Shown here: positions 6,137-61,600 of the stretch, piece by piece
Layout of the letters: each line of letters begins with the position of its first letter
Position numbering within the stretch: the first letter of the stretch is position 1
Source of the DNA: Thermoplasmatota archaeon
GTDB lineage: Archaea; Thermoplasmatota; Penumbrarchaeia; Penumbrarchaeales; Penumbrarchaeaceae
Assembly: GCA_965234725.1 (NCBI GenBank)
Contig: CBDDUX010000038.1
Location: 19,323 to 83,322 of the forward strand
Direction of reading: 5' to 3'
Length of the DNA: 64,000 nucleotides
Position numbers and translations under genes: made by a program
The notes under the pieces: model-generated
Seen by the model: only the letters and a program-made list of their open reading frames with translations
What the model was told of the DNA's origin: nothing
The model's database searches: none

Positions 6137-7357
6137 ATGGATGGTTTCCCGAGGATGAGTGCAATGTCTGGTATTTCTGTATCAGAGCGTACTGTAAAGA
6201 TAATTGTGATAACACTATCCATTGCGGGAGTGCTCGGTCTGGTAGTGCTTGCTCAATGGTCTGAAACTCCGCAGGTGAATATTTCTGAACTCCAGGACCA
6301 TGAAGGAGAAACCGTCAGGTCATATGGATTGGTTATAGGACAGGATCTTCTTTCTTCCGGAGCTTCCAGACTTCTGTTGGTGGATGGGAATGAGACAGCA
6401 GAAATATACATTGAAAGATCCTCCAATGAATATCCTTCGGGAACAAACATAAAGGTAAAAGGTGAGGTCTTCAGTTCTGATGGGAGCTTCTCGATAACAG
6501 TACAATCCGACAGTGGGATCCAGAAAATAGGTGAAATGGAGGAAATCGCATTTGGGAGGGATTCCATCACGGGCTCGATAGTCACTTTCCAGGGAAACCT
6601 TGTCAGCAAGGATTCAGGAGGGTGGAATGATGAGGAATGTATCATTATGGTGGAGGGAGATGATGGCCCGCTCTTTGTTGATGTTACCATATCCAGAGTA
6701 GATGAGGAATTCCACAACGGAGACCTCATTTCATTTTCTGGATATCTTTGGGAGGGGGGAGATGTACTTTGTTACGGCGACTCATCCGCTGAGCTCATAT
6801 ACAGACCTGAATCGGCTACCAGTTCTCTGGTCGCTTTGATAGATAGACTGAAAGATGATCAAAATGACATACCCGCAGGAAAGATGAATATCCTCTCATA
6901 TGTGAAGTATGAGCCTGTTTCAAAGAGTCTTTATGTAAGTGACGAGGTGGAAGGATCCGCGATCTCCGTGAAGGTCATTCTTCCGGATCCGGATCCTCTG
7001 ATCCATAAGGGAGATCTTATCGAGCTCATCAATACTACAATACTTTGGGATCCTCAATCACTGAGATACGAATTCCATGCCGAGTGGGCTTCGGTAATAA
7101 TGCCGTACGGTCCCTGGAGACTCGGACTGGATAATCTGGACTTCGGGGTCTCATCCTATGAAAACACCGAAGTGATCCTGACAGGGGAGCCGGTATTGAC
7201 AGGTGATGAACAATTTCTCTATAACGGTAATTCCAGGATCGAACTGAGATCCATTGATACCATCCCAATGGGAAGGGACATTGAACTGAGAGGATACATA
7301 CGTTTTGACCCTCTGACCAATTCATTTTACCTGGAGGTTATGGAGGTCAATGGATGA
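6137..7357 (+). CDS. Membrane-anchored multi-OB-fold protein (start may be 6155 or 6164)
   Basis: N-terminal TM followed by repeated OB-like strands (GETVRSYGLV, GTNIKVKGEV, GSIVTFQGNL, NTEVILTG, GRDIELRGYI). Confidence 0.6.
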   Translation: MDGFPRMSAMSGISVSERTVKIIVITLSIAGVLGLVVLAQWSETPQVNISELQDHEGETVRSYGLVIGQDLLSSGASRLLLVDGNETAEIYIERSSNEYPSGTNIKVKGEVFSSDGSFSITVQSDSGIQKIGEMEEIAFGRDSITGSIVTFQGNLVSKDSGGWNDEECIIMVEGDDGPLFVDVTISRVDEEFHNGDLISFSGYLWEGGDVLCYGDSSAELIYRPESATSSLVALIDRLKDDQNDIPAGKMNILSYVKYEPVSKSLYVSDEVEGSAISVKVILPDPDPLIHKGDLIELINTTILWDPQSLRYEFHAEWASVIMPYGPWRLGLDNLDFGVSSYENTEVILTGEPVLTGDEQFLYNGNSRIELRSIDTIPMGRDIELRGYIRFDPLTNSFYLEVMEVNG

Positions 7358-52800: not shown

Positions 52801-54100
52801 GGTCGATCCCGATCGACACATAACCGGAGACCTGTGCCCTGATCCCGATATCTATTGATGTTCCGTTCACTTTCCAGTATAGTTCGAACATGTCGCTGTC
52901 AGTTTTCGTTACGTTCCCATATTCATCCGGATCTATAATACCATCAAAATCAGATTTTGGAGGTGGAGGGGGAGGTGGCGGAGGAGTAGCGTCTACCCTC
53001 CAGGTGCCGTAACCGACCTTTGTATGTTTCGCGGAGATATCATCGGATGTTGAGATGCCCCAGATAATGTTCAGCGGAGTTCCTATCGAAATATCCTTGT
53101 CATTGGGATCTCCAGTTGAAAGCGCTCTCTTGATCTCGAGCGTGGTCCAGCCTCCGGATTCTGTAGCGTTGAAAGCCTTGATGTCGTCTGTTCCTCCGGT
53201 CAGATCGGTGTCAAGGATATGTGATGTTGTGGTCGTTGCATAATGGTCCTCTGCATAGGGACCGAAAGCAGAATATCCACCCATCAGGAAATCCGCACCG
53301 AGCATCATTGTAGTGGGGGATATCCCCAGAGATATCCAACCTGTGGTCAATGCCTTCACACCAATTGTGATATTCGGACCTGTAACATTCCAGTACAAAA
53401 GGAAATTCCCCGAATCATATGAAGTGCTGTTTGAATACTCTCCGTCCGTTATAATTCCGTCAAGTTCATCAGAAGCAGGAGGTGGAGGAGGAGGGGTTCC
53501 ATCCATCATGATAGTGTCGAAATCAGCATCATCGTGTTCTTTTGTCCAGTCATCATCTTCCCTTGTGGCCCATATTATCTTCATCGAGGTCCCGTTGACG
53601 AACTTCTTATCATATGCATCCCCGGTTGACATAGCTCTCTTGAATTCTATGGTGGTCGATCCAGCGGATTCAGTCCCGTCAAATTCATCGATATCGAAGG
53701 TCCCGCCGGTGAAGGTAGTATCTTCAGGATGGTTGCCCTTGTCATCGGTACAAAACGTGTCCTTGATGTGTGGTGTCCCGGTTCCATCAACCCATCCGAA
53801 TATCATGTCTGCATTTGTCATGAGGTTCACAGGATCTAATCCCAGGGAAAGCCAGCCAGTGACTTCCGACCTCATCCCTATGTAGATGTCGGCTCCTGTA
53901 GTGGTCCAGAATATCTCGAATTTCCCCTCATCAATGTTCTTGGAACTCTCATATTCGGATACTCCAATTACACCGTCTATTGTAGGATCCGCTCGGGTTG
54001 GAGCAGACTCTCCAGATGATCCGGTAGGACCAAATGGAATTATGAAGAAAGCTAATGCAATGTAGAGGACCGTGATCAGATGAATACCTTTTAAAGACAA
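49838..54100 (-). CDS. Secreted 7x DOMON (heme b-type) protein fused to a cytochrome b561-like membrane domain
   Basis: Seven repeats DG.I...EY / GW.S.G....M..AD / H..RG with Pro-rich linkers. The C-terminal TMs carry four His (FHAIFM, FHIYVM, LHSWFG, IHKYAG). Confidence 0.88.
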   Translation of the reverse strand: MSLKGIHLITVLYIALAFFIIPFGPTGSSGESAPTRADPTIDGVIGVSEYESSKNIDEGKFEIFWTTTGADIYIGMRSEVTGWLSLGLDPVNLMTNADMIFGWVDGTGTPHIKDTFCTDDKGNHPEDTTFTGGTFDIDEFDGTESAGSTTIEFKRAMSTGDAYDKKFVNGTSMKIIWATREDDDWTKEHDDADFDTIMMDGTPPPPPPASDELDGIITDGEYSNSTSYDSGNFLLYWNVTGPNITIGVKALTTGWISLGISPTTMMLGADFLMGGYSAFGPYAEDHYATTTTSHILDTDLTGGTDDIKAFNATESGGWTTLEIKRALSTGDPNDKDISIGTPLNIIWGISTSDDISAKHTKVGYGTWRVDATPPPPPPPPPKSDFDGIIDPDEYGNVTKTDSDMFELYWKVNGTSIDIGIRAQVSGYVSIGIDPTDRMLDADLIFGWVEGNLAKSEDHFATGATGPHSRDEDLGGTFDIISYNGTESGGWTTFEFRRNLSTSDSNDRTIWTDHAFPLIWAVAESDDPMATHTRRGTIMWNLSNETVPPPPPPPPLHFSEFDGMISEGEYNSSKIFDSDRFELHWNLNGTTISIGIRAQATGWISLGIDPSDRMADGDMMLGYHDGDPHLFDQFSTGPEGPHPEDTTLGGTNDILDFNVTESDGWTTIEFLRNMTSTDLYDKSINKTGLMTIIWAVSDSDDPTSLHTRRGTTTWKIGTNTTPPPPPPPLRNTTLDGIVSEDEYDDSASFGGGSFVLHWSINGTRIWMAMVGETEGWVSIGFEPTTMMKDADLLIGWVDDDGPGLWDTYSTGNLGPHPLDTDLGGSDDIITFNGTQTEGNTTIEFIRELDTQDVYDKEIPSSGSLNIIWGLGSSDDPESSHSDRGSGTLLLYMDEPQPVGGLDGIISTGEYKDSASFDFDNFKVHWTIEGQDLHMAISARTTGWISIGFDPEDVMMDSDVVLGWIENGAVHIIDAYSTGQFGPHPPDTHLGGTMDILQYNGTEIDGVTTIEFVRNISTGDDYDKDIPTAGNLNIMWAYGEHDDFGETHSKRGFAVLTIGPGGKEPPVTADLDGMISEDEYDFNGTFGDGIITIYWKVEGDSIRLAIQGKTTGWVSIGIDYSTAMSDSDMIFGWVEGDGTVKVIDAYSTGPTGPHPADTEQGGTDDIDSFGGREINGVTTIEIVRKLDTGDDKDNPIPRNGTVKIIWGVGDSDSFSNMHTRVGYGTIDIASGETSSEDPVVLWPFHAIFMTLGVGGMIAAWVSQYRKKWKFFLKFHIYVMSTSVIMGTIGLILGYIMVESGTGDHLRVLHSWFGIIAIIGSFTALGLGLYFKYTKIMKHKRPTMKIHKYAGRIGAGSFIMVAFSGFYQALVVNEGEPESWFIAIMTILLLIITSVVIFLILKGKKKPSPQKIVTAQVQIDIEE

Positions 54101-54183
54101 AACGACACCTCGATTTTTCCCAAATAGGATTTATCTTCATTCATTATATGGGTTTTTCTCTTGAAAAAGTGATTTTACAGGCA

Positions 54184-54737
54184 AAGGTGTGACTAAAGGA
54201 GGTTTAAATCAAGATGTAATTTCCTTTAGTCTACAGAGCGGTCCATTCTAACTTTAGTTTAAAAATCGTTGAAATTGAAATTATCCACACAAGGACCGGT
54301 TGGGAGGGGTCTTATCGTAGTATTATTGTCGATATTCAAGATAAGACCCCTGAGATGAAAAACGGTTCTCAGTTTATCTCATCATTTTTCATCGTGTGTA
54401 ATCAATTTGTAGCAGTGAAATCCGTATCAATATATCATTGACGATAGGAGTTCACTGCGGAAGAGGTCCACTCCCCGAATAGGATTATAAAACAATAAGA
54501 GGGGAGTGGACCGGTCGGGAGGAGGGTGAAATGCTTTTCACACGACTTAGGAAAATCGTTTGCGATTTTCTGGTATCTTGACCGCGGGGCAGAGTAATTT
54601 GAGAGTATCTGCCAGGTCAAGGTGTGACTAAAGGAGATTTTAATCTAAATCTAATAACCTTTAGTCTACGGGCCGGTCCATTCTTCGCAATAATTCAATA
54701 GTAATTATAAGAAGAATGGACCGGTCGGGATTTGAAC
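54184..54737. repeat. Structured repeat cluster 1: hairpin modules delimited by tRNA 3'-end fragments at 54293-54305, 54507-54520 and 54717-54737
   Basis: (T)GGACCGGTCGGGA copies, the first with one mismatch; the last extends to the reverse complement of GTTCAAATCCCGACCGGTCCA. The modules recur at 57.75-58.34 kb. Confidence 0.9.
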
Positions 54738-54839
54738 TAAATATGGTTTAGAACTTATTTTTATTCATTTAAGTTATTAAAGAGGTGATCTGTTCGAACC
54801 TACCTTTGCGAATCTCCTGGGATCGATTGTCCACTTATT

Positions 54840-55032
54840 GGGTGGACCAAGAGAAAACTCTGCCGCCCCCGGATGAAGTAGCATTGGAGGAAACCTCTCC
54901 TTTCCGGCCATTGAATTATCCGAATTGGAGAGGCTTCCGCCCGCGAAAAAGGAAATCTTGGACGAAAACCCGGATATGGAACCCGGGAAGGACGAAGAGC
55001 CGGAGATGGAGTATCTGGACCCAGAAGCATAG
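54840..55032 (+). pseudogene. Frameshifted remnant of an acidic Pro-rich C-terminal tail
   Basis: VDQEKTLPPPDEVALEETS, then in another frame FPAIELSELERLPPAKKEILDENPDMEPGKDEEPEMEYLDPEA*. Resembles tails of surface proteins elsewhere in this window. Confidence 0.45.
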
Positions 55033-55041
55033 ATGACCTCT

Positions 55042-57297
55042 CTACCTGTAGACTGTGTAAGGGACAGTGAACGAACCCGCGGTTGTTTGGATGCTCAGCT
55101 CCCCGCTTACGGACTGCGCGGTCATATAACCCGAAGCACCTTCCATAATCCCATAGTCTGAGGATGCGGAAACACTGGATATATAACCCGATACGGATCC
55201 CGAACTGCTGATCAGTCCATTTTTTTCTTGGTAGATCAGATGAGGACAACCCCCGGAACACGTGCTTGTCCAGGAACCTGTGACCTTCAATGTTCCGGTA
55301 ACCTTTCCGTTGTTGTTCACAGTCGCGGTCAACGTGACCGTCCCGGAAACCGTGAAGAGATTATTGTAGGCGACGGTCCCGCACTCGGGACAGTTCTGCG
55401 TCAATGTAAATACCGTATTTCCGGTAAAGGGACCTTGGTAGACCAACTCCTGATCGATCGGAGGTTTCTCGATCTTTCCGACAAAGGACTCGTATACATC
55501 TTTTCCTCCCTCGAAAATGCTCTTGATGGTCCCTTCGGCGTTGGGAATTATCAAGCTCTCCACTTTGGACCGAAAGCAGTTCTCGACCCTGTTGATACCA
55601 TTCTTGATCATATCGACAGTACCGGGGACATTCAGATTGTGCAAGGCGGCACCCAGGCCGATCTCCCCCATGCCGCCCGTTAATGTCACGTACAGAAGGG
55701 CAGCTGTTGGTAACGCCAGAGCAGCGGCCGGCGCCCCGAAAAGCGCGGCGATCCCAATGGCCACGGCAGCAGTACCGCCAATAACCTTGTAGGCCGTATT
55801 GAAGGCCTCTGCCGGTCCTCTCGCGGAATCGCCGAAATAACCCCTGGACGCCATATTCACATTAGATTCTTGACCGTTCGACAGTGCATCGTAATATGCT
55901 TTAAAGCAATCGCCGGACCGCGTTACGGATCGAACGGGACCTTCATCGATAACCGGTGATTCCCAGTCAGTATCCAATTCCGATTGGGCCAACAACATGC
56001 CCATTATCATCCTGTCAACGAAAGCGAGGGAGGACAGGTCAATATCGATATTATCATCACCGATCGTCCCTATTTTGTAGTTATCGGTATATCCCTGGAT
56101 AACGGGGCGAATACCCTCCACCAGGGATTCCAGGTTTGATAATTGAGCATTTACGGCAGAGGTCATCTCCGTGGTCTCCAGGGATGTGCCCTGGACCCCG
56201 TTCCTGTTCTCCCGGGCAAATTCCAAGGCCGCTTCGAGGAAAATGAGGGTCGCCTGGCCGTCGGGCAGCCCGGAATTGGGCAATTCCAGCGCATGGAATC
56301 CGGACAATGTGTTGGATTTCGTGATCTTGCCTCCGGATTCCTTGATCACCTGGATATCGTAACTCCCGGAGGAGAAGCCCCCATCGCTTGTGATCAAGGG
56401 CGGGACCGCGACCGATACAGTCTTTAGGGTAACATCCACCGAAGGCACCTCAATGGAAATACCATGGTCGTCGGTAAAGCATACCAGGATATCGCCGTAT
56501 GTCCCGAAACCCGTCCCCGAAACCGTAAGTATGGCACCGGGTACGCCGGAGTCCATGTCCATCGACGCTATCTCGAACTTGTCCTCGTCTTCAGTTCCAA
56601 ATCCCATGAACAAAAGACCCGCACCCACGATTATTGCGCCAAGGATCAAAAGGACAATTAAGATGGCAATTGCTCCCAGACAAAGGAACGGGGTCGCGGA
56701 CCCCTTCTTCCTGGGTTTTCTTCTTTCTTCCTCCCCGGTAGATGGAAGATGAGGCGCCTTCCAAGTGAACTTATGACCGCAATCGTTGCATTCCCCCCGG
56801 CCGTCGTCCAGGAAATCGATATCCTTGCTATTGCACTTCTTGCATTTGCCAGTTCTTAGAGTCTTCACATGCTCTTCGACCTGCTCAGGCGCCTTGGGCC
56901 TGGAACTCTTTCTTCTTGAAAGGATAATTATGACTATGATCAATACCACGATCAAAACAAGGATCCCGAGCACTATGGCGCAGATGCCGCAGATTGCAAG
57001 ACCGGAAAAAGCAAAGAGACTAAGATTGTTCCCTTCCTCGGGCTTGTTGGTAGCATCCCTGGGACCTGTTCCTGCCTCGTACTCCTCCTGGTTGTCGTAC
57101 CCCTCCCTGTCCGGGTCCTCATAAATTCCTTCTTCAACACCACCGAGATATTGGATCTCCCACAAATCCAGGAGCCCATCCGAATCGGAATCGCCCACAT
57201 TGTCCTGCGCCGATGTTGAAGTAAAGGCGCAGATCAGTATCAAAGTGGATAAGAACAATGCAAAGCTAATAAGGACAGTTCTTCTTTTATTCTTCAC
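55042..57297 (-). CDS. Cargo membrane protein: Ca-binding DxDxDG, TM, Zn ribbon, TM, IPT/TIG-like domain, long hydrophobic segment
   Basis: DSDSDGLLDLWE, CKKC...CNDC, SGVPGAILTVSGTGFG, and a Gly/Ala-rich hydrophobic stretch. Confidence 0.75.
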   Translation of the reverse strand: MKNKRRTVLISFALFLSTLILICAFTSTSAQDNVGDSDSDGLLDLWEIQYLGGVEEGIYEDPDREGYDNQEEYEAGTGPRDATNKPEEGNNLSLFAFSGLAICGICAIVLGILVLIVVLIIVIIILSRRKSSRPKAPEQVEEHVKTLRTGKCKKCNSKDIDFLDDGRGECNDCGHKFTWKAPHLPSTGEEERRKPRKKGSATPFLCLGAIAILIVLLILGAIIVGAGLLFMGFGTEDEDKFEIASMDMDSGVPGAILTVSGTGFGTYGDILVCFTDDHGISIEVPSVDVTLKTVSVAVPPLITSDGGFSSGSYDIQVIKESGGKITKSNTLSGFHALELPNSGLPDGQATLIFLEAALEFARENRNGVQGTSLETTEMTSAVNAQLSNLESLVEGIRPVIQGYTDNYKIGTIGDDNIDIDLSSLAFVDRMIMGMLLAQSELDTDWESPVIDEGPVRSVTRSGDCFKAYYDALSNGQESNVNMASRGYFGDSARGPAEAFNTAYKVIGGTAAVAIGIAALFGAPAAALALPTAALLYVTLTGGMGEIGLGAALHNLNVPGTVDMIKNGINRVENCFRSKVESLIIPNAEGTIKSIFEGGKDVYESFVGKIEKPPIDQELVYQGPFTGNTVFTLTQNCPECGTVAYNNLFTVSGTVTLTATVNNNGKVTGTLKVTGSWTSTCSGGCPHLIYQEKNGLISSSGSVSGYISSVSASSDYGIMEGASGYMTAQSVSGELSIQTTAGSFTVPYTVYR

Positions 57298-57372
57298 CTT
57301 GAGACCTCAAGTATATAGGTTTGTAGTAATATTAAAAACATCTCAATTATAAAGAAAATATTGTTTTATTGG

Positions 57373-57642
57373 CTAATGAATAGCGTTAACTCGATCTTTC
57401 ACGTGCTGATCGAGGGTGAACTGTTTGTTCCCCTTACCGTTCTTCTTCATATATTGACGGGTCCCTCGGCCGAATCCCATCTTCTCACACACAATATATG
57501 AAAAGGATAGAATTTTCTTTCGGAGGTCCTGATTATCAACACGTTCAAGTTTCAGAGTAGGTTGAGATGGATCGAGCGTTTTCCAATTGCCTATAATATG
57601 GTTGGATAATTCTTGAGTTTTCATTTGGATGATATTAATCCA
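57373..57642 (-). pseudogene. cas1: 5'-truncated remnant of a Cas1-solo/casposase gene (C-terminal helices + HTH)
   Basis: WINIIQMKTQELSNHIIG..KTLD...P..KLERVDNQDLRKKILSFSY...KMGFGRGT.QYMKKN...NKQFTL..HVKDR resembles, from memory, the HTH-bearing C-terminus of archaeal stand-alone Cas1/casposases. An in-frame TGA precedes the Trp. Confidence 0.7.
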
Positions 57643-57752
57643 TCACTGGTTTAGACTTAATAATTGGACCAATTGAGTTCTAAACCGGTTTTAGGGCAGA
57701 ACGTAATAATCTTGTTTAATCCAGATATATTGAGAATATTTCTAAATATGAA

Positions 57753-58341
57753 TGGTGGACCGGTCGGGACCTTGGCCGCGGGGCAGAGTATTTTGAGAGT
57801 ATCTGCCAGGTCAAGGTGTGACTAAAGGAGTTGTTCTTCAGAATATCATTACCTTTAGTCTACAGACCGGGACACTTTTCCTTTAGTTTTGAAAAGGTTG
57901 AAATTGATATTATACACACAGGACCGGTCGGGACCTTTGAATCGTAGTGATATTATCGTTTATTCAGATTCAAAGGCATCGCCAAAACCTTCGGTTTTGT
58001 CTGTCCCTCGGTTTCCCTACACTCAACCTCGGGAGCCAGATGAAAAACGAAAAAATGAGTTGTGATCTTTCAAATCTTTTCAATCATTGAAATTATTTTA
58101 ATAAACACAGGTGGACCGGTCGGGAGGGGTCTTATCGTAGTATTATTGTCGATTTTCAAGATAAGACCCCTCAGATGAAAAACGGTCATCATTAATATAT
58201 CATCATTTTTCATCGCGTATAATCAATATGTAGCAATGGTTTTCGTAGAAATTTGGAATTGACGATAGAAAACCATTGCGGAATAGGTCCACTCTCCGTT
58301 AATAATTAGAAAATAATTAGAGGAGAGTGGACCGGTCGGGA
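57753..58341. repeat. Structured repeat cluster 2: hairpin modules delimited by tRNA 3'-end fragments at 57753-57769, 57921-57933, 58110-58125 and 58328-58341
   Basis: The first copy is the reverse complement of TCCCGACCGGTCCACCA, including CCA. Module 58126-58327 is homologous to 54306-54506; 57770-57920 is homologous to 54577-54670 and 54184-54292. Confidence 0.9.
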
Positions 58342-58612
58342 TCAATACCATTTAAGGTTTTGACCACTTTTTTTTATTTCCTTTAAAAACTCGTATTTAC
58401 AAATAGTTTTTACCTTTAAATATTGATATATTTTAGATATAATTTAAATTAATATTTCATTCTACATGTCAATTCTTGGGAGTAAAGTAGATATCCCCTT
58501 GTTGATGACAATAATATATCTTGACCGGTTTCAAATATCAATGTGATGTAAGTGATATGTGTACAATAGCTTTTTATAATCGGTTAGAGATATAAATTTC
58601 AATTAGAAGGAG

Positions 58613-61600
58613 GTGTTCATCCTGAGAGGAAAAGAAGTGTATATAGTATTTGTTACAGTCCTGTTTCTGACCTCTGGCTTGTCTTTCTTGATGCAAGGAG
58701 AAGTTGATTCATTTGAAGATACCCTCTACAAAAATGTGAAAGGTCTTCATCTTAATCTGGATCTGATATCTGATTATTCTAAGGAATATGATTTGAAATC
58801 TGAAAACAATATACGGACAATATCATTCAATAAGAATAATCATGAAAAAGGTATTTTCTCAATTGAGGTTGATGATTTAAAGTTAAATGTTGAATCATTT
58901 ATCCTTTGTGAAGAAAATGGAATAGAAGAATATAAAGAGAAATCTAATGACAAAAATGCCTTAAATGGTTTTCCAAATGAAAATAAAATTAAGTACACCA
59001 GCGAGAATAATTATGAAATCAATTATGATGTTACTGTAAATGGGATAAAGGAAACTCTTGTATTGTATTCATATCCCGATAATATTACATCTGATTTAAT
59101 TCTCCGGTCGAAGATCTGGACGAACTCTTTTGTCAAAACTAACAATAATAATGGTAGTTATAATATTCCTGAAAAGGATATCAAATTCTTTTTCAATGAC
59201 TTCATGGAAAAAGAAATATTTTCAATATCAAAACCTTTCCTTTTATCATCACCTGAATCTATAATGACTGAAAATGGGAAGCTGGAAATGCAGGATACCA
59301 TTAAAAGGATGCCACTAGAACATAGATATCATTATGATAAACATTACATTTACCATGATATTATAATACCAAAGGATGTTGTCTATTCCGATATCAAGTA
59401 TCCATTATATGTCGATCCCTCTATCACTACATTCAGTGGAATAACGACGTATGAAGGTTATGTTAATGGTTCGATTTCACAAACAATTGACGGTGATACA
59501 ACATGGTATTATGATTGTTCAAGGACAATTCTACTTGATAGTAGTATAACAATTGGTGTTGATGAAGTTCTAACTTTCAAAAATATAAGAGTGAAAGCTA
59601 ATGATAATGATATGGCTATAAATGTTGATTATGGGGGAACCTTAAATATTATTGATAATTCAGTTTTAACAGCTAACTATGATTATTACGAGTATACAGT
59701 CATATATAAATATGGAAGTTATGGAAATATCTTGGATAGTGAAGTTAAAAAAGCAAAATTTGGAAATGGGATTGAAATTCGATCATCTAATGTTTGGATT
59801 AATAATTCTCTTATTCATATAAATGGAGATTATGGTGTTTATATTTATCAATCCAATCCTATAGTATCTCATTCAAATATTAATACAAACGATTATGGAG
59901 TATATGTCACAGCATTCTCAAGTCCAACATTAGTTGGAAATGACATTAATATCAACACATATGGTGTTTATTATGAGAGTTCCAATGTGGTTGAAGAATT
60001 TTCCTCTTCAATAAATATTGATCAGTTGGTTGGAACAAAGTACGAAAGTAATTCAGTTCAATGGGATGTCGGGTTGGGAAATTATGCTTTGACTTGCCCT
60101 TCTGTCACGGTAGATTCGACCTATCAAGCAGCATATAATGCAGGACACCTTTACGACGGAATAACTGAGGAAGTATGGTGGAATCAATGGGATAGTTGGT
60201 ATGATTATAATCCACATTGGGCAGTGTTTGATTTTCAAGAACAAAAGACAGTCGATGAATTTATAATTCATCATAGATCAGATTTCCTGACTCAGGATTA
60301 TCTAATTCAAACATGGACAGGCAGTTCTTGGTCAACCCAAGTGAATGTGAATGACAATACTCAACAGATCAGAACTCATACTTTGGGATCAAGTGTGACA
60401 ACTCAAAAGATTAGACTCTACATCACGGATGCGAATCCTTCTGATGGTATGGCAAGAGTACGTGAGTTTGAAATATATGGTGAAACAGACGATTATGAAT
60501 GTCATTACATGATTACAGATCCAATTGAAACACATGGAGATACCATTTTCGGTAACTTAATCTTGGATAAAACCGAACCAGGTGATTCTCAAATACTCGT
60601 TTCTATTCTTGATGGTGTGACTGAAAATGTCATTACTGGATTTGATAGACTCGAATCTGATGAAATTGACCTGAAATGGATCGACACTGAAGATCATCCA
60701 TCCATCAAAATAAAAGCTGAGTTTGAAAAGGTAGATACTGACACTCCAACCCTGAACGGGTATGACCTCTATTTCAGTCCGTTGAAAGATTATCTATCCG
60801 ATTTTGAATCAGATGACGAGTTTTCTTCAATGAATTATTTAGAAACAAGAAACGGTCAGGCAACTCTAGAGTTGGAAGAAGAAATCCTTGATGAGGAATG
60901 GAGCACTGGTTGGGATTCAAGATGGACGGTTGAGACCTTTGAAGACGGTGGAGATGTGTATGTCTCAACTGACTATTGGGAGGATTCTGGTAATGACCTC
61001 TATATGCATGGAAAATCACTTTCATCTACTTCAGGTCATAATGGTCATGTCCAGGTTTCTAAAAACTTCGGTGAGATTGATCCTGGTGACACTATTCAAA
61101 CTCATTTTGAGGGGAGTATCCACCGGTATGATTATAATGAAGCCGATTTCGAGATTTATCTCTATAACTCTGGAATGACCTCATTTAAGAAGATCAGATG
61201 GACAACAAATAATAATACGTATGATCCGGGAATTAGTGGTGATACTTATTACATCATCGCTCAGGATACTCATCCGTTTGCTCCTTACTTTTATGATGTT
61301 GTCATCCATTCTACCATTGAAAATCTCTTTGAGAAATACTTTGGAGAGGAACAGGTAGACTTCGAAACGTATAACGTTTTGTATGTGAAATCATTCGCAA
61401 TAGAACAATACAATCATCATGAAAATCCAAAGGTGTACATTGATTATTTCATTGTATCAGACATCGCAAAATCAGGTTCTGCAATTTCGACTGTATTTGA
61501 ACTTGAACCTTTGACCAAATGGGCTTTTGTTGCTCTTAACAAAGATGCTTATTATAACACAGATGTGAAGGTAAGTATTCTCAATGGTTATGGTGAATCA

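Follow-up and report, generated by a model that had tools for sequence, protein, structure and literature searches.

A candidate casposase gene remnant beside a tRNA-end array at a disrupted tRNA-Ala site of a Thermoplasmatota archaeon

The DNA analysed here (the window) is a stretch of 64,000 nucleotides (nt) from a Thermoplasmatota archaeon, positions 19323-83322 of contig C38 in a 3.54-Mb assembly of 114 contigs that is 97.65% complete (genome G000). Four other genomes of the genus (G001-G004) were available for comparison. The window contains a short minus-strand reading frame, hereafter the relic, that resembles the end of a casposase (Cas1-solo) gene and lies close to a tandem array of partial copies of a tRNA-Ala gene. 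We consider it quite probable that the relic is a casposase pseudogene fragment, situated in a variable island at a former tRNA-Ala(TGC) site, that has lost its catalytic part and has been joined at a palindrome to a trailer module free of Cas1. An earlier note on this DNA, written from the letters alone, had taken the peptide for a casposase tail and the nearby tRNA-end copy for the mark of a decayed casposon-like element; as described below, the two proposals fared differently.

The relic and its break point

The relic is translated as WINIIQMKTQEL...VNAIH*, without an internal stop, and the codon directly upstream (57643-57645) is an in-frame TGA, exactly as the earlier note had described its frame of 89 amino acids (aa). 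Inside the relic is an open reading frame (ORF) of 83 aa (57373-57624) with an ATG start at 57624. When the relic was compared with PDB sequences by phmmer, it aligned with residues 327-412 of the 431-residue chain 6opm_A at an E-value (E) of 2.9e-20, and BLASTP aligned it with the intact Cas1 of its own genome, P0002, with 43 of 85 residues identical (51%; residues 313-397; E 2e-28). P0002 is a 407-aa open frame on contig C59 that matches the relic peptide at E 2.9e-24, is recognized as Cas1 by Pfam PF01867 (Cas_Cas1; 5.1e-65) and TIGR00287 (2.1e-58), and aligns with PDB 6OPM over its full length (E 1.3e-117). The two matches of the relic bear out the earlier suggestion that the peptide is the helix-turn-helix (HTH) tail of a Cas1-solo protein or casposase, and the full-length homologue for which a search had been proposed is P0002 itself, encoded in the same genome next to a tRNA 3′ end. 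The relic was identified through the genome's own paralogue and PDB sequences and not through domain profiles: Pfam, NCBIfam and PHROGs gave no family for the 89-aa frame at E up to 10; none of the three libraries models the casposase tail.

Among the best 120 of 580 homologues, the protein closest to the relic was P0005, with 66% identity over 88 aa. The alignment covers residues 313-400 of this 400-residue protein, that is, it runs to the last residue, and the relic therefore retains the natural stop of the family. Its tail is 48-66% identical to the tRNA-Leu casposases of the same genus. In an alignment of 29 sequences, the relic keeps seven of the eight invariant and five of the seven near-invariant columns, and the three replacements (L374R, W364C and S370G) would fit drift after inactivation, or relaxed constraint.

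Family-2 casposases carry 60-70 extra C-terminal residues with a predicted HTH (eLife 2020). We assigned a sequence to this family when it showed significant similarity to the C-terminal region that ended at the natural C-terminus, and the relic shows such similarity. Judged by its sequence, the peptide is the C-terminal part, linker plus HTH, of a family-2 casposase. The N-terminal and catalytic domains of Cas1 (PF01867) are not in the relic's frame, and only 114 nt lie between the frame and the tRNA copy. With the catalytic domain gone, the relic cannot act as an integrase, and we read it as a fragment of a family-2 casposase rather than as a functional member of the family. In the Methanosarcina mazei (M. 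mazei) casposase, whose structure is described in the eLife 2020 paper that cites 6OPM, the two parts are required together, and a truncation to residues 1-341 is inactive.

The similarity to Cas1 extends beyond the TGA. Upstream of this codon the sequence reads ..TQLVQLLSLNQ* where relatives read ..SQTV(K/I)YKGLNQQ, and the LNQ corresponds to the conserved LNQQW of the family; 20 of 36 nt in this DNA are shared with a relic of the congener G003, and a search of the genome extends the relic's match to residues 303-405 of P0002, across one TGA and one TAG. The DNA on the other side of the break is related to sequences that follow tRNA-Ala(GGC). A degenerate copy of the 3′ part of tRNA-Ala agrees by eye in 17 of 23 nt with the tRNA-Ala(GGC) trailer of G001 and in 14 of 23 nt with the tRNA itself, and an equivalent degenerate copy is also present in the tRNA-Ala(GGC) trailers of G001 and of contig C28 of G000. 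In blastn, window 57665-57769 matched positions 6717-6822 of a G001 locus (L028) with 78% identity (E 1e-11), in an alignment that starts at 57665, and 57698-57769 matched C28 12793-12865 with 81% identity. There is no Cas1 at either of these places, and the tRNA-Ala(GGC) of G001 is intact there. A contig from sequencing run X1 matches the window from 57673 rightwards, has a loose end there and continues into a different left partner; a motif from this loose end is not in the G000 assembly. These comparisons show that the right-hand module has an origin independent of Cas1, and they place the break between Cas1-derived and trailer-derived DNA, within about 20 nt, at 57656-57678, inside the 23-nt spacer of the palindrome.

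The palindrome itself is as the earlier note gave it, an 11-bp inverted repeat with one mismatch around a 23-nt core. Its arms, 57645-57655 (ACTGGTTTAGA) and 57679-57689 (TCTAAACCGGT), are 11 nt each, 91% complementary and 23 nt apart, and the likeness to the hairpins of the tRNA-end arrays that had been pointed out is real, given that the array hairpins I6, I9 and I14 also have exactly 23 nt between their arms. The junction palindrome has the stem of at least 10 bp, the 23-nt spacer and the distance of less than 400 nt from a tRNA-end copy by which we defined array hairpins. Its spacer ends with CAATTGAGT, which by eye bears only a partial resemblance to the motif ATTGACGA(G/T)A of array-hairpin spacers. 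The earlier note had the casposase frame cut off at the palindrome. The break does coincide with it, but the palindrome is, on the alignments above, assembled from two unrelated sources, the left arm consisting of the family-conserved cas1 codons (S)LNQ and the right arm belonging to the degenerate tRNA-Ala copy and trailer module. The G001 trailer, which has no cas1 adjoining it, is already complementary to the left arm at 9 of 11 positions (manual count). Inverted repeats of this form (11 nt, at most one mismatch, 23-nt spacer) number 93 in the 3.54-Mb genome, or about one per 38 kb, and it is unlikely that such a hairpin would lie exactly at the break by chance, although the coincidence was noticed post hoc. 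The segment 57643-57697 had no blastn match elsewhere in the genome at E 1e-3. Three overlapping contig pieces from an independent second study (X2) span 57331-57830 and agree with it in every letter, and the junction is therefore real DNA and no assembly chimera; sequencing runs X3 and X4 yielded scattered short pieces only.

The island and the tRNA-end arrays

In the congener G004, the same DOMON-domain gene (Pfam) is followed by an array of six units and then by an intact tRNA-Ala(TGC). Window 54612-54737 is 97.6% identical to the G004 sequence, covering the last unit and the last 20-21 nt of tRNA-Ala(TGC). At 54738 of the G000 sequence the body of the tRNA is replaced by other DNA, and an intact tRNA-Ala(TGC) is located at the very start of contig C103; within the window, ARAGORN called no tRNA-Ala gene and only a tRNA-Asn, at 2742. 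From the synteny with G004 and the loss of the tRNA body at 54738, it follows that the DNA to the right of 54737 is an island that was inserted at, or has recombined into, tRNA-Ala(TGC), and the comparison of the two genomes shows that this site is disrupted in G000. The island holds the 751-aa ORF, the relic, array B with its four copies, and a gene cut by the contig end that encodes more than 1795 aa, including an F5/8 type C domain. The 751-aa gene has a G+C content of about 52%, which drops to 30-39% in the 1-kb bins between 58001 and the end of the contig, where the >1795-aa ORF lies. At the equivalent position of G001, a 1376-aa gene lies between tRNA-Ala-end copies and tRNA-Ala(GGC); homology of its product to that of the 751-aa ORF was ruled out on comparison.

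A Pfam search of six neighbouring ORFs found no PolB, integrase or other cas gene near the relic. The whole genome gave no match to the PolB family PF03175 (PF00136 was not searched), and none of its seven Phage_integrase matches is on C38, C28 or C12, the contigs with tRNA-Ala cassettes. The earlier statement that polB, terminal inverted repeats and other cas genes are lacking holds for PolB and cas genes nearby, and for the GGGGTA-type terminal repeat described below, but an imperfect 24-nt inverted pair (I2) does bound a segment: 54737-54760 pairs with 57671-57694 across 2.96 kb that contain the 751-aa gene and the relic.

The tRNA-end copy nearest the relic, GGACCGGTCGGGA (57757-57769), reads as the reverse complement of the 13 nt with which all three of the genome's tRNA-Ala genes end; it starts 114 nt from the relic's W codon, in agreement with the roughly 110 bp and the tRNA 3′-end assignment of the earlier note. 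The 13-mer occurs seven times in the window at no more than one mismatch, always in one orientation, against an expectation of 0.10, and none of 100 shuffles reached seven. The units of array B are homologous to those of array A and to units behind other tRNAs. At least 10 tRNA species in G000 are trailed by arrays of 143-261-nt units, every one of which terminates with a copy of the 3′ end of its own host tRNA; homology between units behind different tRNAs is at about 75%, and unit DNA is present in 10 of 24 genomes of the family, including all those of the genus. Units of the type with a ...CCCC hairpin have a copy of exactly 14 nt (with CCA in addition where this is encoded) behind eight of eight tRNAs, and this copy corresponds to positions 60-73 of the host tRNA; in another type the copy is 19-20 nt. 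Rfam gave nine matches on 53500-59000 at E up to 10, none near its gathering score, and the array units belong to no named RNA family by this search. A limited search of the literature met nothing on tandem small inserts at archaeal tRNA genes, which is no proof of their absence from print.

Throughout the genome, hairpins with stems of 10-13 bp and spacers of 23-24 nt show a roughly tenfold enrichment close to tRNA-end copies, and 21 of the 93 hairpins with 23-nt spacers, the junction palindrome among them, lie within 400 nt of such a copy, in neighbourhoods that make up 2.1% of the genome. The stems of array hairpins vary between copies with complementarity kept, and many spacers carry the ATTGACGA(G/T)A motif. 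The tRNA-proximal hairpin contains an inverted copy of the last 2-6 nt of the tRNA. A conserved hairpin module, GATGAAAAA..ATGATGA..CCGTTTTTCATC, is found at window 58172-58214 and at equivalent places behind other tRNAs; on the strand of the tRNA direction it has box-C-like ATGATGA words, and its Rfam match to a C/D-box family, 12.7 bits, is far below threshold. Ahead of an 'orphan' tRNA-Ser-end array on contig C2 (about 90960-91100, minus strand), the DNA resembles a tRNA-Ser gene whose anticodon region is interrupted by an intervening stretch; ARAGORN made no call there.

The motif GGTTTAGAAC, which forms the perfect core of the 24-nt inverted pair, recurs at cassette borders: it occurs nine times in the genome, and seven of the sites adjoin tRNA-Ala-end copies. 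At five genomic sites and two loose ends from sequencing runs, its distance from the 13-mer is always 14 nt, and it is on the side of the cassette. Inverted pairs of the motif bound window 54746-57687 and C28 5705-9293, the latter a 3.6-kb segment with a 1085-aa lectin/peptidase gene. On contigs C102 and C103 the motif begins 10 nt past the tRNA-Ala end, and both contigs stop directly after it.

In the account that we favour, the relic is what is left of a family-2 casposase gene, its last ~90-100 codons, in which the catalytic domain ends and the linker and C-terminal HTH follow; the first ~300 codons, with the Cas1 fold and the active site, are missing, and the fragment is unable to integrate DNA. 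The island interrupts a locus that in the congener is simple, namely, DOMON gene, repeat array and tRNA-Ala(TGC), and the tRNA-facing side of an old casposon, or of some casposase-bearing element, would have been deleted or replaced by recombination at a tRNA-Ala-type attachment module. The cas1 codons CTGGTTTAGAC may have served as a cryptic copy of the cassette-border motif GGTTTAGAAC; the two resemble each other, which hints at, but does not prove, the use of a cryptic site in cas1 by a recombinase that acts on the motif. Several points weigh against this account. The cryptic-site idea draws on one 9-nt resemblance, and the exact breakpoint is ambiguous, given that 57664-57678 is like the cas1 codons of the congener relic in 8 of 15 nt and like a degenerate tRNA-Ala copy in 10 of 14 nt (against G001). 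The palindrome, with its 23-nt spacing typical of array hairpins, may be a functional site instead of having arisen with the junction. All 89 codons remain open and include the ATG-started ORF, and expression of a stand-alone HTH peptide is conceivable. Lastly, the imperfect repeat that bounds 54737-57694 may be the terminal repeat of an unknown casposon lineage.

Table 1. Positions of the features described in the text (window coordinates unless a contig is named)
Feature	Position	Strand	Remarks
Casposase (Cas1-solo) C-terminal relic	57373..57642	-	89 codons plus natural stop at 57373-57375
In-frame TGA, then ~11 codons with fading Cas1 similarity (..TQLVQLLSLNQ*)	57643..57678	-	protein and codon comparison
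Inverted repeat across the break, 11 bp, 1 mismatch, 23-nt spacer	57645..57689		pair I12
Degenerate copy of tRNA-Ala 3′ part (acceptor 3′ strand and T arm)	57664..57687	-	TTGGACCAATTGAGTTCTAAACC on the plus strand
tRNA-Ala(GGC) trailer module	57688..57756	-	homologous to DNA downstream of tRNA-Ala(GGC) in congener and on G000 C28
Copy of last 13 nt of tRNA-Ala (14 nt including 57756), first repeat of array B	57757..57769	-	
Array B, four tRNA-Ala-end copies	57757..58341	-	spacings 164, 192 and 216 nt; hairpin-rich units between
Array A, three tRNA-Ala-end copies	54293..54737	-	last copy (54718-54737) is final 20 nt of former tRNA-Ala(TGC) gene
Left arm of imperfect 24-nt inverted repeat	54737..54760		19/24 (79% complementary); core GGTTTAGAAC perfect
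751-aa ORF	55042..57297	-	starts 76 nt downstream of relic's stop, same direction; no Pfam family; 52% G+C
Array hairpins in window	57934-57976; 58124-58172; 58233-58279; 58286-58333		
tRNA-end arrays	window 54293-54737, 57757-58341; G000 C5, C14, C20, C26, C31, C63, C76, C109, C2		
GGTTTAGAAC sites	window 54746-54755, 57678-57687, 58357-58366; C28:5705, 9284, 9392; C12:8940; ends of C102, C103		
Casposase relics, G000	window relic; C38:4755-5045; C54:2793-2879		
Casposase relics, G001	C53; C155		
Casposase relics, G003	C26 (two); C2		
Casposase relics, G004	C4; C11		

Casposons of the clade and the rival readings

With P0002 and P0005 as queries, ten casposase relics were counted in G000, G001, G003 and G004, leaving out genes merely cut by contig ends; most of them have stop codons or frameshifts, and nine include the HTH-coding end. 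The relic upstream of the window on C38 has an internal deletion that joins residues ~123-161 to residues ~350-401. In the five tRNA-Leu-type elements that have both parts (C59 and loci L122-L125), the casposase reads toward a terminal repeat 0.3-2.8 kb away. Because the 3′ end of the casposase gene is near the end of the element, deletions sparing one element end would tend to spare the 3′ end of the gene. No conserved DNA, such as a shared terminal repeat would provide, was seen after the relics' stop codons among eight sequences compared. The search for tRNA-end copies near the other relics gave single 10-mer matches at chance level, and among the relics counted, the one in the window alone adjoins tRNA-end arrays.

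The intact casposase on C59 reads toward tRNA-Leu(CAG), and the end of its element is GGGGTATTATACAAATCGAGGATTTGT, preceded by 14 nt that consist of TGCA plus 10 nt. The same arrangement, YGCA, 10 more nt and then GGGGTA(T/G)TATACAA with an internal palindrome, is seen at all six assembled casposon ends of the clade, namely, C59:2349-2362 and C55:260-273 in G000, positions 360-400 of L122 (G001 contig C183), and the metagenome loci L123-L125, whose casposases are 70-71% identical to P0005. A tRNA-Leu or Leu-like 3′ end adjoins five of the six. One end was seen for each element, and from the geometry we infer the target duplication that they would make. This geometry matches that published for M. 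mazei, in which the last 4 bp of tRNA-Leu, with a conserved CGCA, plus 10 bp form a 14-bp duplication, and for Aciduliprofundum boonei, in which a 15-bp duplication overlaps tRNA-Pro by 5 bp. In these published examples the duplication overlaps the tRNA by 4-5 bp only, and family-2 casposons are reported to target tRNA 3′ ends.

A search for related loci with the single protein returned none; alignment-based scans did retrieve casposase loci. Three of the four other genomes of the genus (G002, G003 and G004) gave no intact casposase with P0002 and P0005 as queries. The casposon end of G001 adjoins a three-copy tRNA-Leu(TAG) array at its outermost copy, which suggests a later insertion of the array units, between tRNA and casposon. 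A genome of the same family (G012, contig C4, 15045-16253; locus L112) encodes a full-length casposase of 402 aa among cellular genes (clostripain-like peptidase, serpin, peroxiredoxin); no PolB was found in nine ORFs scanned and no tRNA within the 20 kb examined, and this gene looks like a solitary cas1. G000 also encodes a second, distant Cas1 (C106:583-1461), 25% identical to P0002 and contained in a 565-aa open frame, which may be a fused or CRISPR-associated form.

The closest rival to our reading, and the one that the earlier note had in mind, is that a casposon integrated at the tRNA-Ala 3′ end, duplicated TCCCGACCGGTCCA and decayed in place, so that the 14-mers at 54718 and 57757 would be its target duplication. 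Direct 13/14-mer copies do flank a 3-kb segment with the relic, an imperfect 24-nt inverted repeat bounds this segment, the duplications published for M. mazei casposons are 14 bp long, and tRNA 3′ ends are the published target of family 2. We consider this reading unlikely, however, since it departs from what the relatives do. tRNA-Ala ends with TCCA and not with the YGCA of the six clade ends, and the window repeats correspond to tRNA positions 60-73 and not to the last 4 nt plus trailer, an overlap well unlike the published one. No GGGGTA-type terminal repeat is on contig C38 at up to two mismatches, whereas C59 and C55 carry it, and tRNA-Ala is at none of 42 other casposase loci in the stretch examined, 19 of which have some tRNA. 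The 14 nt that flank one arm of the bounding repeat on its outer side differ from those flanking the other, and the 13-mers at 54718 and 57757 do not abut these arms but are part of arrays; the 13-mer is present seven times here, and like arrays trail at least nine other tRNAs. PolB, too, was missing from the ORFs and the genome-wide PF03175 search described above. On the clade geometry and the lack of tRNA-Ala at other loci, the relic's parent was therefore most likely not the maker of the 14-mers, and the tRNA-Ala 14-mer most likely did not serve the parent element as target duplication. The proposal that TCCCGACCGGTCCA is a casposon target-site duplication thus finds no support, given the 6/6 clade ends and the membership of the 13-mer in arrays behind many tRNAs; such arrays are present in all four other genomes of the genus, including the three that gave no intact casposase with P0002 or P0005. 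Of the wider claim that a casposon-like element once occupied this site, what survives is that the presence of a casposon here or nearby is plausible; a duplication at tRNA-Ala lacks the hallmarks of the clade, and both tRNA-Ala targeting by a casposon and the proposed link to the origin of CRISPR repeats are speculation.

One could envision other roles for the relic or for Cas1 at this locus. A quite unlikely one is that the relic marks a formerly autonomous member of a family of cassettes that are bounded by inverted GGTTTAGAAC motifs and insert beside tRNA-Ala-end copies, a family that would be derived from casposons, non-autonomous and now carrying large surface-protein genes. The association of the motif with tRNA-Ala-end copies, its constant spacing and its inverted pairs on C38 and C28 would all agree with this, and the start of the motif exactly 10 nt after the ends of tRNA-Ala(TGC) and tRNA-Ala(CGC) recalls the YGCA+10 position of the terminal repeat at tRNA-Leu. 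Neither cassette, however, is flanked by a direct duplication, and the other casposase loci have no convincing copy of the motif or of tRNA-Ala ends (two one-mismatch hits in six loci, neither beside a tRNA-Ala-end copy). Because the motif is similar to a degenerate tRNA T arm, its association with tRNA-Ala copies may be trivial; moreover, the relic reads away from the adjacent motif, unlike the five casposases that read toward their terminal repeat. We regard it as very unlikely that the relic is a domesticated HTH protein, with the 83-aa ORF expressed as a transposase-derived regulator that binds DNA, for instance hairpins of the locus or the ends of casposons. No stop interrupts the frame between the ATG and the natural stop, seven of the eight invariant columns are kept, and the HTH region has been retained in nine of ten relics of the genus, all of which such a protein would explain, but a search of 5.8 billion proteins found the window's own ORF alone as a homologue of 48-156 aa, which gives no sign of a stand-alone HTH family. 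Most other relics are interrupted by stops or frameshifts, three invariant or near-invariant residues are replaced here, and the authors of the eLife 2020 paper report that they could not demonstrate DNA binding by the isolated HTH domain of M. mazei. Finally, it is extremely doubtful, in our estimate, that the short-unit tRNA arrays of the genus are themselves products of integration by a Cas1-family, casposase-like enzyme. The 14-nt unit copies behind eight tRNAs equal the target-duplication length of the casposase family, and several units abut the tRNA copy with hairpin ends GGGGT...ACCCC, the first 10 nt of which are identical at 9 of 10 positions to the casposon repeat GGGGTATTAT (by eye). 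The arrays also appear to grow at the tRNA-proximal end, as indicated by the position of the G001 casposon end. Our preferred reading remains that of a casposase pseudogene fragment in an island at the former tRNA-Ala(TGC) site.

Comparison with known systems

Casposase relics and casposon remnants have been described before, and the relic is an ordinary one that would not surprise a specialist; the ten relics in four genomes make it clear that casposons came and went in this genus. Its setting is of more interest, in that a tRNA-Ala site has been opened by an island of large surface-protein genes, the blocks of which are each bordered by tRNA-Ala-end copies and a recurrent inverted motif. The arrays show how integration hot spots at tRNA genes are built, and they deserve a study of their own. 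If a Cas1-family enzyme did make them, this would bear directly on the derivation of CRISPR repeats from target duplications, a link that is not established. A casposase would then have written the arrays as natural CRISPR-like records, with a tRNA as 'leader', and the relic beside array B would be the footprint of the writer.

Of the systems with which the relic can be compared, the M. mazei casposase (6OPM) aligns with the relic over the tail and with the relic's intact paralogue over its full length. Its C-terminal HTH is predicted, was disordered in the crystal and is required for activity (eLife 2020). The relic differs in being a tail only, without the Cas1 catalytic domain and with three conserved residues replaced. 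Casposon remnants and solo terminal repeats have been reported in Methanosarcina at tRNA-Leu and intergenic sites, with tandem and mixed occupancy (Krupovic et al. 2016, Genome Biol Evol). Like the relic, the Methanosarcina remnants described there are decayed parts of casposons at an integration hot spot that is common to other mobile elements. The locus studied here, in contrast to that description, has no terminal repeat of the clade's type, no PolB and no matching duplication, its neighbouring tRNA is Ala and not Leu, and its repeats are the last 13-20 nt of the tRNA, where those of Methanosarcina comprise its last 4 nt and the first 10 nt beyond it. The tRNA-Leu casposons of the genus (C59, C55, C183 and L123-L125) have casposases of the same clade as the relic and differ in the GGGGTA(T/G)TATACAA end 10 nt after YGCA, which is absent near the relic.

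Integrated elements accrete at tRNA 3′ ends by site-specific recombination and leave tandem copies of the attachment site. The island departs from this general pattern in that Pfam detected no integrase in the six neighbouring ORFs and many of the 'inserts' are only 143-261 nt long. It conforms to the pattern in having an intact tRNA at one end and same-orientation partial copies of the tRNA 3′ end between the inserts, and window 54718-54737 behaves as a partial attachment-site copy at the far end of the insert.

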